A stretch of DNA of 64,000 bases from Dictyostelium discoideum (taxonomy: Eukaryota), in NCBI GenBank assembly GCA_000004695.1, contig CM000152.2, positions 2,816,001 to 2,880,000 of the forward strand. Direction: 5' to 3'. The notes beneath the pieces are model-generated. The model was given only the letters and a program-made list of their open reading frames with translations, was not told the origin of the DNA and did no database searches. This document shows, piece after piece, positions 14,880 to 47,535 of the stretch. Positions within the stretch are counted from its first letter, which is position 1. Each line of letters begins with the position of its first letter. The translations under genes and the position numbers were made by a program.

Positions 14880-15600
14880 ACACATACAAAACACAATTAC
14901 AACATCAAATCACCACCACCAGCACCACAATCGAAACAATTGCAGCTCATGAATTAATTCTTGATACTCTTCAAATCCAGTCAGTAAGTGGTATCTCTGA
15001 AAAAGAAAATGAGACAAAATCTCAACAAGCCACCCTAGAGAATGAAATCTACGCTCTAAAGTTGATTGATGACGATTGTTATCACACAGATGGTAACAAT
15101 CTTTTCAACCCCATATGGTTTATATGAATTATAAATTTTAAACATCGCGATCTATCATTGGATTTGTTTGGAGAAACCTGATCGTATCCAAGTCACTGTC
15201 AGTTGTATCAACGTATACCCTGTAAACATCCATGGTTTATATCTTTAATAATCCACCAGAGTTTTACATTCGTTAGATATTAGTAATTGTTTAGGTGTTA
15301 GAGAGGTCAAATTTTAGCAAATTTCCAAAACCAAACTTAATGACATTGTGTTAGATTTGGTAGTGTTAATGCAGCATCAATAATTGGTAAAAATTAAGAT
15401 TTCCAATCTTTTGATAATATATCACAGCAACAACAACACTCATCAAATACACAAACACAATAACCAGTAGAACAACTCAAACTTCACCACAGGTACAGGT
15501 ATAAACACAATAACAACAACAACAACAAATAAACATATCCAACAACACAATCACCACCATCACAACTACTGATCAACCATGGCCTCAAATAACTTTAGGT
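14880..15600. repeat. AT-poor ~700-bp island (A/C-rich at both ends) with no ORF, containing a dispersed repeat unit
   Basis: Base composition differs sharply from the flanking >85% A+T DNA. No reading frame longer than about 25 codons. It contains the 14990-15185 unit, which recurs at 47380-47535. Confidence 0.5.
14990..15185 (+). repeat. Dispersed repeat, copy 1 (~190 bp)
   Basis: This segment is ~85% identical to the reverse complement of 47380-47535. The core shared sequence is acaaaatctcaacaagccaccctagagaatgaaatctacgctctaaagttgattga...ggatttgttt. Confidence 0.7.
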
Positions 15601-15812
15601 TACATAAATAAATAAATATGTAAAAATAAATAAAAAATTTAATTCATTGTTAACTTTATTAATTAAAACATAAATTTCTTTATTTTTACTTTTTTTTTAT
15701 TAAAAATATTATTATCATTAAGTTAATTTGAAAAGTATAATTTTAATTTATGATTTTCCTCGAGTTGGTAGTCAATATATATACATATATATATTAAAAG
15801 GTAATGATGATT

Positions 15813-16800
15813 CTAATCTATGTAATAAACATCAGAAATTTGTAAATATTTTAAACTTGATATAATATCAAAATTATCAAAAGGGCAATTTGAAAAATTT
15901 TGATATAATTTACTTTTGTAATAAGTTAAATTACCTAAAAATCGAAAAGTTTTTATATTAAAAGTATTAAAAGTTAGATTTTTTAAGGTGGTTGGTAACC
16001 ATTTAATTTTTTCAAATACTCCATTAATTATATCTAAATAATAGTAATGATAATCTAAGACCAAGGTAATTAAATATAATGGTAAACAATTAAATTTAAT
16101 TAATGGTTGGTAAAATTGAAATGGTCCTCTACCTCGATGACTTATAATTCTTAGAGTAGTAATAATAATAATGGTTGATTTAACATCAATTCAAAAAATA
16201 TTAATTCTTTTAAATTTTCTGGAAATATTGAAACAACTGCTCCATCTTTTAATTTGGTGGGAATAGGTCTCATAAAACCTATTAAATAAATATATGTGCA
16301 TGAAATTGGGAAAAAATTATTAACTTGAATATTTTGATTAAATCCAGGGTATCTGGAAACAATAAACTTTTTTAATCCATTTGGTAATGAATCTGTTTCA
16401 AAAATTTTAAATTTAGAGTCATTTTCTATTTTGCCATGTGAAAAATTCTTTCCATAAAATTTTAAAATCTCCAAGGTTGATGGTAATTGTGTTTTATTTA
16501 TAGTTAAATTTGGTGGTAGTATATCTGCTTTTAAAGTGCCACTAATTGAACCATCAATGGAAAAAGTTGATAATACCAACGTATGTATTGATGTAAATTT
16601 TGAAATTTTAAATATTCACATGCTTTAAATGGAAAATGCCTGTATTCAAATTTTAAATATTCAAGTGTTTGAGGTGGTGATATATACAATTTCATTTTAT
16701 ATCTATTATATTTTGAACAAAAAAAACTATCTTCTCCCCAAGCTCTATATGATAAATAAAGTCGTTTCAAATTATTTGGATGAATTCCACTAATTCTACC
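15813..16800 (-). pseudogene. FNIP-repeat protein gene remnant with frameshifts
   Basis: Three overlapping ORFs in different frames (16531-16770, 16151-16579, 15813-16064) encode FNIP-type repeats, for example LPPNLTINKTQLPSTLEILKFYGKNFSHGKIE and LPNGLKKFIVSRYPGFNQNIQ. A frame change near 16575 sits inside continuous homology, and there is an in-frame stop between 16064 and 16151. Confidence 0.4.
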
Positions 16801-17405
16801 ACTACTACCGCTACCACCAATATTATAATCATTATATATTTTTTAAAAATTTAAATCTAATATCTTTAATTAGAAAATTTGAAAATTGATTATTGTAACA
16901 ATTATTGGGACAAATTGAAATAATTCTTTTTTGTAAATCATTGAAGGCTTTTTATGAATTCATTTTTCCCCTTTTTTGTTTTTTTTTTATACCTTAATCT
17001 GGAAAATAAAATATTCATAATAGGGAAAATGTTAAAAAAAAAGGGGGTTAAAAAAAAAAAAAAAAAAAAAGTTGAAAATTCCACAATAAAACTATAACTC
17101 AACAAAAATACCTCAATTAATATTAATATTTTAAATTTCAGATGTATCATTCATCCATAAGATGTCACCGAAACCAGTAATTAGGCAAACCCTTCCCATG
17201 GACTTCTAATGATCCTCATGATATAGCCATCAGGACTTGTCATGAATATAGTATAAAAGTTTGAATTATAATTTTTTGCTCACTTTAAACATAACCAAAA
17301 ACATAAACACCATAAATAATTATATTTTTAAAATAATTAAACCAAATTTTTTTAATAATAATAATTTTTTTTTTTTTTTTTTTTATTTTTACATGATTTT
17401 TAATA

Positions 17406-17701
17406 TTATAATACAAATAATAAAATAATTAAAATTACAAAAATAGATGAACATAAAGAATTTCTTTGGGTAACTCTATTTGAAGTATTGAATGATTCGG
17501 ATGATGTTTCAGTGGAATTAATTGGAGATTTTGTTGGTTTTTCTGTTGGTATTGGAGTTTGTGTTGGAGTTGATGTTGAATTTGGTTGAGTTGGAGATGG
17601 GGTATTTGTTGGTGTGCTTGTTGGTTCCTCCGTTGAAATACTTGAGGATTGCTCTGGGGTTGAATAACTTCCATTATTTTCATGACTATTACCATCGGTT
17701 T

Positions 17702-46328: not shown

Positions 46329-46380
<52 letters not shown>

Positions 46381-47067
46381 GATTTCAATAATATATTCAT
46401 GTTTTCACAAAAATTAATTAATAATACATGTAAAATTACTTATACCATAGAAGAGATTAAATTAAAAGATAAGAACTTTACATTTGGAACAACAACGTTT
46501 AAAGTTGAAAAAGATTCAATAAAATTATCAGTTTTAATTCAAGATTATCAATATCAAAGTTCATTAAATACATTACAATTAATATTTTATTCAGCAGTTG
46601 GAAATGATTCAAATTCTAACAATGATGATTGTAATAAACAAGATACATCAATTGATACATCAAATGCAAATAATCAACAAATTTCAAATTATATTCAAAT
46701 TTCTAAAAATTCAAAAACATTAGTCGGTCGTTTCATTAATCAAGTCATTGCAGATTCAAGATCAACTTTTATGTCAAGTACAATTATTAAAGATAATGTA
46801 AAATCATCATCAATTATGTTAGGATTAAATCTACCACATTGTAAAGAATGTTTAATTGATCCAGACTTTTCAGTTTTGGTTAGTCCAGATTTTAAAGAAT
46901 CATGTAATGAATCAACAAATAAGAACAAATGGTTTATACCAGTCATTGTCGTTGCACCTGTGGTAGGTTGTGCTGCAATTCTTACTCTATCTATTGTTTT
47001 GTATAGAAAGAACAAATATAACATTAAAATTGCTTCTGAAAAATTAAAATCTTTGAAAAGGAAATAA
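43638..47067 (+). CDS. Array member E: three-exon paralog (~43638-43714, ~43809-43921, ~44063-47067) with 6+1 EGF-like repeats and a poly-Thr insertion; it lacks the introns that separate exons 3, 4 and 5 in A-D
   Basis: Signal peptide is MTKLITILIFFFLLFNVIKSSSTDQ. Donors are GTATGT and GTAGGT. Exon 3 runs without interruption into ORF 44137-47067 (976 aa). The N-terminal half is strongly diverged but keeps the GELPSCFTCHIYS / LPNLFYNSTS..LYLYGKDLGF framework. There are extra Cys-rich repeats at 45240-45720. (ACA)n encodes TTKRTTTTKRT(T)17 at ~46300-46380. The 3' 1.3 kb is nearly identical to A-D. Confidence 0.75.
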
Positions 47068-47379
47068 TCAAAAAAAAAAAAAAAATATGAAAAGACAACA
47101 AATTCCAAATGTTGGAAAAATAAAATCCAAACCTCAAATTAAATTTTAAATTTAAACAAATAATTTAAAAACGAAAAAAATAAAATTATTTTTCACTAAA
47201 AAAAAAAAAAAAAAATAGAAAATAAATATTTATTTGCAAAGGTTTAAAGTTGGTTTTGATTTTTTTTTTTTTTTTTTTTTTTTACTTTTGATTTTTTTAT
47301 TTTCTATGAGGCTCTCCTTGAAAATGAAATTATTTATTTAAATGGACAATAAAAAAATAATTTAAAAAAAGTTTGGAAA

Positions 47380-47535
47380 CAAATCCAATTATAGATTGCG
47401 ATGTTTTAAATTTATTCTTCAAATAAACCATATAGAGTTGAAAAGATTGTTACAGATTTACCATTTGTGTGATAACAATGAGTTGCGTCAATCAACTTTA
47501 GAACGTAGATTTCATTCTATAGGGTGGCTTGTTGA
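47380..47535 (-). repeat. Dispersed repeat, copy 2 (inverted relative to the copy at 14990-15185), a fragment with AT-rich DNA on both sides
   Basis: The reverse complement, 'gaaaaataaataaacaaaatctcaacaagccaccctatagaatgaaatctacgttctaaagttgattgacgca...ggatttgtttccaaac', aligns with 14990-15180 at ~85% identity and has one 8-bp indel. Confidence 0.7.

Follow-up and report, generated by a model that had tools for sequence, protein, structure and literature searches.

The two inverted copies in the 64,000-nt stretch of Dictyostelium discoideum DNA analyzed here (the window) belong to a repeat family, and we put at about even the chance that both are relics without function, derived from a dispersed repeat that is gene-like but unclassified. 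The existence and extent of the family, the polarity of insertion, the neutral divergence of the copies, and the missing hallmarks of transposons and RNA genes were observed directly, and neither copy showed any sign of present function. If these are relics, the unit would be gene-like rather than transposon-like, and the copies would be dead DNA, left behind either by an orphan gene that was dying out or by a unit that was already non-coding. Duplicative insertion may have spread them through regions where tandem gene arrays abound and turnover is fast, and their inverted orientation 32 kb apart would then be incidental and without effect.

The preliminary description had proposed an inverted pair of ~85% identity, and BLASTN of the island against the window confirmed this, aligning 15001–15169 (+) with 47555–47377 (−) at 84.4% identity over 180 columns including gaps (E = 6.6e-51). 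Counting substitutions alone, identity was ~90% (90.2%), as the two copies differ at 15–18 substituted positions and by two indels, one of 3 bp and the other of 8 bp. By eye, the shared part of copy 1 spans ~15000–15177 on the + strand and carries both deletions as private changes, while copy 2 spans 47369–47566 on the − strand (47365–47557 by nhmmer) and is a ~190-bp isolated internal family fragment equivalent to positions 10044–10221 of L008, a family member at another locus in another genome. Copy 2 had been placed at 47380–47535; the location was right, but its right end was ~30 bp short of where homology stops (~47566). No third copy was found in the window with BLASTN or nhmmer, and BLASTN gave a single non-self match. 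The island around copy 1 (14880–15600) was AT-poor and ORF-free as described, with a GC content of 0.33–0.35 vs. about 0.1–0.2 in the surroundings and a longest mechanical ORF of 35 aa. Copy 2 begins 302 bp beyond the stop of ORF E at 47067, very near the ~310 bp first reported, and has AT-rich DNA on each side.

Family members were present well beyond this pair. An exhaustive phmmer search with 68 residues from window positions 14921–15124 matched four small annotated ORFs at 71–85% identity: DDB_G0286275 in AX4, and ACTFIW_003725, ACTFIW_012782, and ACTFIW_012783. DDB_G0286275 sits on a 5,450,249-bp record, the length of AX4 chromosome 4, and beyond it the sister lineage (assembly GCA_054859355.1) holds at least three family loci. 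With copies on another AX4 chromosome and in the sister lineage, this is a repeat family rather than a private two-copy duplication. These loci match the whole island in DNA alignment, beyond the 180-bp core, and the unit initially taken to be 190 bp long is instead the entire island plus its tail, ~850 bp here and ~1.2 kb or more in L008, the longest copy seen. Judging from these alignments, the family appears to be low-copy and dispersed, and the only genomes in which it has so far been seen are those of AX4-type D. discoideum and of the sister lineage nearest to them. When metagenome and prokaryote collections were scanned for exact 22-mers, there were 0 matches, as expected for an amoeba-specific sequence. 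A word-indexed protein search with all ORF fragments also returned nothing, but this was uninformative because true relatives later recovered by exhaustive phmmer had escaped it.

The body of the unit is AT-poor and contains runs of CAA, ACC, and CACCAG, together with what remains of a reading frame, whose vestigial segments include PDDRTIQVTVSCINVKYTLQDNIFNNLPEFDIRYVMVIHQFD, FETNCAAVDSVCRSGFTRTHTFSF, and LWPSNGAILEKYVNHVSIIEDFSTSKYTITWEDFGVGYSSCNV. Its 3′ end carries a conserved '...DQPWPQIT(S/L)GY(I/V)NK' followed by TAA and then an AT-rich tail, and this C-terminal peptide and TAA are kept in AX4, L001, and L008. Across the core, substitution-only identities were 90.2% for copy 1–copy 2, 91.3% for copy 1–L008, and 90.7% for copy 2–L008, a star-like pattern in which the three best copies are equidistant at about 9–10% divergence. 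Truncations and internal deletions differed from copy to copy in the family alignment, and the two L007 copies (L007a and L007b) are a local tandem duplication that took in flanking DNA. Every copy seen lies inside a tandem gene array or within ~10 kb of one.

Copy 1 (14887–15739, + strand) is a ~850-bp family member, 5′-truncated and internally deleted, with homology to L008 and L007. It matches L008 over 14890–15275 and 15274–15618, lacking an internal segment of ~490 bp with the deletion point near 15283, and it matches L007 over 14899–15376 and also over 14899–15167 plus 15519–15643. Its ends are A/C-rich, and it includes the conserved end '...DQPWPQITLGYINK-TAA' near 15560–15610 and an AT-rich tail common to L007b, which is (AAAT)n-like and gives way to a T-rich stretch also present in L007b. 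The first private deletion, following 15071, removes 3 bp, and the second, following 15092, removes 8 bp. The 8 bp are retained in all other family members, and the 3-bp site is full in copy 2 and L008, represented by 2 of the 3 bp in L007b, and part of an absent stretch in L007a. Against both L001 and L005, the left breakpoint of copy 1 falls at 14886/14887; at L001, an RNF220-like RING ORF (identified by Pfam) adjoins the right part of the island.

The same position in D. cf. discoideum is an empty site. The locus from that lineage aligns to AX4 up to 14551 and resumes at 15782, and the 450 bp between contain no family copy, in an AT-rich alignment that is imprecise. The insertion edges coincide with the ends of family homology. 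Copy 1 has an FNIP-repeat gene and DDB_G0302676 as neighbors, and D. firmibasis and D. citrinum have neither the FNIP gene nor the island. These comparisons place the insertion of copy 1 between its two neighbors later than the split from the D. cf. discoideum lineage. The FNIP gene was the first insertion here and the repeat unit the second; one lineage later gained an element with terminal inverted repeats and a RING-gene fragment.

Copy 2 lacks both the 5′ and 3′ portions of the unit, is 87% identical to L008, and is a 190-bp internal fragment within a separate, lineage-specific 1-kb block. The C2-RING gene (ORF at 48348–50894, − strand) has duplicated pieces of its 3′ flank on both sides of this ~1-kb block, and copy 2 lies at the left end of the block. 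The left flank copy (47210–47336, +) and the right one (48248–48316, +), which adjoins the C2-RING stop, form direct repeats at 47210–47245/48248–48283 (92%) and 47317–47336/48297–48316 (90%). The block is missing in D. firmibasis, where only about 230 bp separate the two stop codons. The earlier suggestion that copy 2 could mark a rearrangement breakpoint is sound insofar as the copy lies in a lineage-specific inserted block. However, BLASTN and nhmmer found no family sequence at the junctions between array units in the window, so the repeat is not a marker of array duplication breakpoints.

The substitutions and reading frames are consistent with relics. Copy 1, copy 2, and L008 have an in-frame TGA in common, and mismatches between copies 1 and 2 fall almost evenly across codon positions (7/6/5), with 8 transitions and 10 transversions. 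Exhaustive phmmer with the 68-residue segment recovered neither an intact parent gene nor any homologous protein of greater length, and its only matches were the small ORFs that other family copies carry. Scores for stop-codon depletion and codon usage were weak, so the unit is not shown to have a coding origin. Counting against relics, the discrete insertion and the star-like divergence would also be expected of a mobile element.

Such an element is the main rival explanation, and it is possible but clearly less probable: an unrecognized, non-autonomous mobile element whose activity would date to the ancestor shared by AX4 and the sister lineage. It could be a deletion derivative of an orphan Dictyostelium DNA-transposon family or a retro-mobilized unit, with copy 1 as a 5′-truncated insertion and copy 2 as a fragment. 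The empty site in D. cf. discoideum, with edges matching the ends of family homology, fits this well, as do copies on at least two AX4 chromosomes and several sister-lineage contigs, their star-like divergence of about 9–10%, and their varied truncations and internal deletions, with copy 1 in AX4 and L007b having a common 3′ end. Moreover, the same in-frame stop in dispersed copies implies that the unit was already non-coding while it was spreading. The proteins of Dictyostelium DNA transposons resemble no known transposases (PMC5633606), and thus a missing Pfam match is no argument against a mobile element.

Still, the features expected of one were largely missing. A repeat search of 14700–15800 and of L008 9000–11500 yielded only A/T low-complexity pairs and no terminal inverted repeats, including at the island edges, where a check for them had been suggested. 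No common k-mer of at least 6 bp was found at the ends of copy 1 that could represent a target-site duplication, the empty site shows none, and the 8-mer flanking copy 2 is AT-only. The initial comparison with MITEs consequently found no support. There is also neither an LTR nor a clean poly(A) tail, the L007 pair is a local tandem duplication with its flanks rather than independent insertions, and density is low, with no additional family copy found by nhmmer in the ~200 kb of sequence searched. Nor does the unit resemble the TRE-type elements of the window, as BLASTN found no similarity to the TRE copies at 54.9–62 kb; it matched none of the elements compared, in keeping with the first impression that it was unlike a described transposon. 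A more specific version, an undescribed non-autonomous element of the D. discoideum species complex without terminal inverted repeats or LTRs that inserted after the D. cf. discoideum split and possibly prefers array edges, is more tentative still.

Returning to relics of a gene-like repeat, the annotations of DDB_G0286275, ACTFIW_003725, ACTFIW_012782, and ACTFIW_012783 would instead suggest a live family of small protein-coding genes, which we consider very unlikely. ORFs of 51–144 aa were called on family copies in two independent annotations, and the open frame of copy 2 runs for 66 codons (P about 0.0025 for one frame, uncorrected for the six tested). However, the called ORFs vary among copies in frame and in invented introns, the frame left open in copy 1 is on the other strand of the unit from that in copy 2, the substitutions lack codon-position bias, and family sequence had no Pfam match and no significant PDB match. 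We also considered and rejected exon relics of neighboring genes. A repeat segment, 'CYHTDG...IWFI*', resembled 'CWHVNCEDCWLIWYC*' of a RING finger, but BLASTP reached E = 0.002 only with stops replaced by W and gave no alignment without that replacement, and L007b and L008 place the right part of the island in the repeat family rather than in a RING gene. Searches with tblastx and tblastn for ComC-family, FNIP, or C2-RING exon relics found no similarity.

It is highly improbable that the pair arose by simple local inverted duplication, with either copy as the source of the other, and marks a rearrangement breakpoint where the ComC-like array ends. The two copies do lie 32 kb apart on one chromosome, a CA dinucleotide present in both is missing from sister-lineage copies, and copy 2 sits in a lineage-specific block bracketed by duplicated flank. 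By contrast, copy 2 is no closer to copy 1 (90.2%) than to L008 (90.7%), which comes from another genome and locus, and the equidistance of the three best copies argues against local duplication. The two private deletions of copy 1 are absent from copy 2, the array unit junctions lack the sequence, and the additional copies in AX4 and the sister lineage already contradict a duplication that had been expected to leave only two copies in the genome.

Least credible of all is the idea, also raised initially, that the copies form a non-coding RNA gene family, for example of snoRNA, Class I RNA, or miRNA precursor genes. It is favored by an AT-poor non-coding segment within an AT-rich genome, by a hairpin of 11 bp in copy 1, and by weak Rfam matches that are C/D-box-like, but those matches had E-values above 3, far under gathering thresholds, with none at copy 2, and in the window only tRNA matched Rfam at the gathering threshold. 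The hairpin was rejected as a structure since it is a product of the private 8-bp deletion and other copies lack it. A candidate C/D-box snoRNA (UGAUGA at 15066, CUGA at 15178) was likewise dropped, as the C box is not kept in copy 2 and the D box falls outside the shared segment. On both strands, RNAalifold on four copies found no compensatory pairs, and the folds had weak energy with positive covariation terms. The Dictyostelium upstream sequence element (DUSE) has the consensus WCCCAYAA, and it occurs in the window only at 4602, 37307, 53080, and 62743, none within 1 kb of either copy.

The practical worth of these results lies mainly in annotation, as the "hypothetical proteins" DDB_G0286275, ACTFIW_003725, ACTFIW_012782, and ACTFIW_012783 would be better labeled as relics of a repeat or pseudogene. 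The locus is in addition a dated case of how intergenic DNA turns over in a very compact genome, and if the unit is mobile, it would be a small new entry for the Dictyostelium repeat catalogue. The finding touches no long-standing open question.

Compared with known systems, the repeat is like MITEs in being non-coding, with short copies in intergenic DNA near genes, but it is ~1.2 kb or more in length (vs. less than ~0.8 kb for a MITE), has an apparently low copy number, and lacks terminal inverted repeats and target-site duplication. Like the TRE-type non-LTR retrotransposons of D. discoideum, it has a 5′-truncated copy that keeps its 3′ end, but unlike them it has no nearby tRNA gene, no oligo(A) end, and no similarity to the TREs of the window. 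The DNA transposons Tdd, DDT, and thug are dispersed, AT-poor relative to the genome, and low in genomic share, with copies that are often deleted (PMC5633606). The repeat is like them in its dispersal, low AT content, low share, lack of resemblance to known transposases, and deleted copies (PMC5633606), but differs in having no terminal inverted repeats at the copy ends examined, in a comparison made by description only. From decayed gene copies, that is, processed or unprocessed pseudogene fragments, it differs in that no parent was found, dispersed copies have a common in-frame stop, and the copy-1 insertion is discrete and outside any larger duplicated block; retro-copies further have a poly(A) tail and target-site duplication, neither of which it shows. 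Yet it matches decayed gene copies in its AT-poor body with Dictyostelium-type simple-codon runs and a vestigial frame, in ending with a conserved peptide, TAA, and an AT-rich tail, and in its 5′ truncation, neutral substitutions, and private deletions.

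The match between the two ends of this region was robust in the AT-rich Dictyostelium DNA of the window. When 14800-15700 was compared with the window by BLASTN, the single non-self match paired 15001-15169 (+) with 47555-47377 (-), at 84.4% identity over 180 columns (E 6.6e-51). These sequences belong to copy 1 (14887-15739, +) and copy 2 (47369-47566, -); 15-18 substitutions and two indels, one of 3 bp and one of 8 bp, separate them. The preliminary description of an inverted repeat was accurate overall, except that copy 2 extends ~30 bp further on its right side. Copy 1 occupies an AT-poor island (14880-15600) whose longest ORF is at most 35 aa, and copy 2 lies 302 bp beyond the stop codon of the fifth ComC-like gene in the array. 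The island sequence is identical in the window and in the chromosome-level assembly GCA_054883475.1; elsewhere, DDB_G0279987 of D. discoideum AX4 is an exact match to the ORF at 4923-5597, as is DDB_G0302676 to the 173-aa product obtained by splicing 14413-13765. The A/C-rich ends of the island (14893-14952 and 15513-15572) are ~68% alike in direct orientation, with the common core AATCACCACCA, and are probably low-complexity stretches that resemble each other within the unit.

A word-indexed protein search with all island ORF fragments gave no match, and it overlooked relatives that an exhaustive search later recovered. That exhaustive search used phmmer and covered a single segment of the unit, the 68-residue translation of 14921-15124. 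It returned four short annotated proteins with 71-85% identity: DDB_G0286275 in AX4, and ACTFIW_003725, ACTFIW_012782 and ACTFIW_012783 in GCA_054859355.1. DDB_G0286275 lies on a record of 5,450,249 bp, the length of AX4 chromosome 4, which differs from the record holding the window. DNA similarity of the matched loci to the island reached far past the 180-bp core. In the longest copy, L008, positions 9940-10329 matched window 14890-15275 (83.6% identity) and 10822-11094 matched 15274-15618 (70.5%), the ~490 bp between these blocks being missing from the window copy. At a second locus, L007, copy a (10853-11318) matched 14899-15376 at 71.7%, while copy b matched 14899-15167 (12436-12717, 83.0%) and 15519-15643 (12787-12908, 81.9%). 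Copy 2 corresponded to L008 10044-10221 only, at 87%. Multiple alignment showed truncations and internal deletions that differ copy by copy, and an nhmmer family profile found no additional copy in the ~200 kb of sequence searched. Read from its upstream end, L008 has an AT-rich region, then (CACCAG)n repeats and an AT-poor body, one reading frame of which has few stops. It finishes with an AT-rich tail, preceded by the conserved end 'TTTDQPWPQIT(S/L)GY(I/V)NK' plus TAA, which AX4 and L001 also have.

We examined the copy 1 site in orthologous loci obtained via neighbouring proteins. In L001 (GCA_054859385.1) and L005 (GCA_054859355.1), both labelled D. discoideum but from a ~92% identical lineage, window homology ends at 14886 on the left and restarts at 15345 on the right, with 3.5 kb of other DNA between. 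This DNA comprises a 1.8-kb element and an RNF220-like RING ORF that is frameshifted. The element (L001 17370-19205; L005 from ~19900), which has terminal inverted repeats of 70-90 bp (core GTGAATTTTATTATTTAATTTCAC), sits at the island's left breakpoint and carries Thr/Pro/Ser-coding repeats with a 45-bp period in a GC-rich array; the RING ORF follows it, from L001 16662 down to 15690, and stops at the start of the repeat-family homology. In D. cf. discoideum (L010, ~85% identical), only 450 bp separate the FNIP gene from the 178-aa gene, and nothing of the island is present. When the AT-rich flanks were aligned, the AX4-specific segment fell between '...TCACACA' (14886) and 'TTGAAAAGTATAA...ATTTTCCTCGAGTTGG' (~15740), with approximate junctions. 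D. firmibasis and D. citrinum have neither the FNIP gene nor the island, the GH9 gene lying immediately next to the 178/179-aa gene. Together, these absences and the L001/L005 breakpoints indicate that the island is a derived insertion that arose in the ancestor shared by AX4 and the 92% lineage. Copy 1 and L007 copy b also share an AT-rich tail of ~60 bp that ends at ~15739, which is the right insertion edge estimated from L010, both junctions being approximate in such DNA. Because L007 and L008 match beyond the core and this tail meets the insertion edge, the 700-bp island together with its tail is one family member in its own right, not the host of a 190-bp unit.

At the copy 2 site, the last ComC-like gene stop and the C2-RING gene stop are ~230 bp apart in D. 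firmibasis vs. 1.28 kb in the window. The C2-RING 3' flank is partly duplicated there: 48248-48283 reappears at 47210-47245 (92%) and 48297-48316 at 47317-47336 (90%). These repeats bracket a ~1-kb block (47263-48247) that D. firmibasis lacks and that has copy 2 at its left end. The rest of the block matched none of the sequences compared. It also holds a 161-codon ORF (47750-48235, -) with a GTAAGT splice-donor-like site, for which neither a Pfam match nor similarity among the sequences compared was found.

The copies form a star of ~9-10% divergence, similar to the ~8% between AX4 and its sister lineage, which fits dispersal of the family around that split. Both this pattern and the discrete empty site fit the main rival explanation, a bona fide non-autonomous mobile element. 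However, terminal inverted repeats were not found at the ends of the island, copy 2 or L008, no target-site duplication of at least 6 bp is present at the copy 1 ends, LTR and poly(A) are likewise lacking, and copy density is low. We consider a mobile element less probable than the gene-relic reading below.

Local duplication within the window is poorly supported. Core identities, counting substitutions only, were nearly equal (copy 1-copy 2, 90.2%; copy 1-L008, 91.3%; copy 2-L008, 90.7%). Copy 1 alone has lost the 8 bp, which all other copies retain, and the 3-bp difference is likewise a copy 1 deletion relative to copy 2 and L008, with L007 copy b retaining two of the three bases. Copy 2 was therefore not copied from copy 1. 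We interpret the inverted pair as real but incidental.

An RNA gene is also poorly supported. At the Rfam gathering threshold only a tRNA-Arg was recovered, and permissive E-value scans gave nothing useful at copy 1 or copy 2. Single-sequence folds were unremarkable, and RNAalifold on four copies and both strands found no compensatory pair; the sole strong hairpin, in copy 1, was rejected as an artefact of that copy's private deletion. The DUSE motif, found upstream of many non-coding RNA genes in Dictyostelium, is absent from the vicinity of both copies; its consensus WCCCAYAA matches the window at 4602 (+), 37307 (-), 53080 (+) and 62743 (-). The tRNA-Arg(ACG) gene (60124-60197, -) has reverse-transcriptase-domain ORFs on both sides (54918-58517 and 58622-59872, -; 60298-62034, +), the typical layout of tRNA-targeted TRE-type non-LTR retrotransposons, in a GC-rich block (54918-62034) with strong strand skew.

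A live micro-ORF gene is poorly supported as well. Several copies carry ORFs called by gene predictors (51-144 aa), but these differ in frame and rely on "introns" that are not AT-rich. Stop-codon depletion and codon-usage scores were marginal at best in any frame, and Pfam and PDB sequence searches gave no match. Copy 1, copy 2 and L008 share an in-frame TGA after '...NPIWFI', so in that frame the unit was non-coding by the time of its dispersal. Mismatches between copy 1 and copy 2 (7/6/5 by codon position; 8 transitions, 10 transversions) show neutral divergence.

Both window copies and the L007 copies lie beside or ~10 kb from ComC-like genes, and the L008 copy lies within an array of large paralogous genes. 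This ComC-like/GH9/FNIP neighbourhood has undergone rapid turnover: AX4 has five large tandem ComC-like ORFs (25000-47067, compared with L003 and L011) and D. firmibasis two at the same position, L001 also aligns to an upstream stretch (~25000-25950), and GH9 position and FNIP gene presence vary among D. firmibasis, D. citrinum, D. cf. discoideum and AX4. With middling confidence, we read the copies as what remains of a dying orphan gene, or of a gene-like unit that was already dead, duplicatively inserted in fast-evolving, tandem-array-rich regions. Copy 1 and copy 2 are decayed members of a low-copy, gene-like dispersed repeat that is unclassified with respect to named elements such as DDT, Tdd and thug (PMC5633606).
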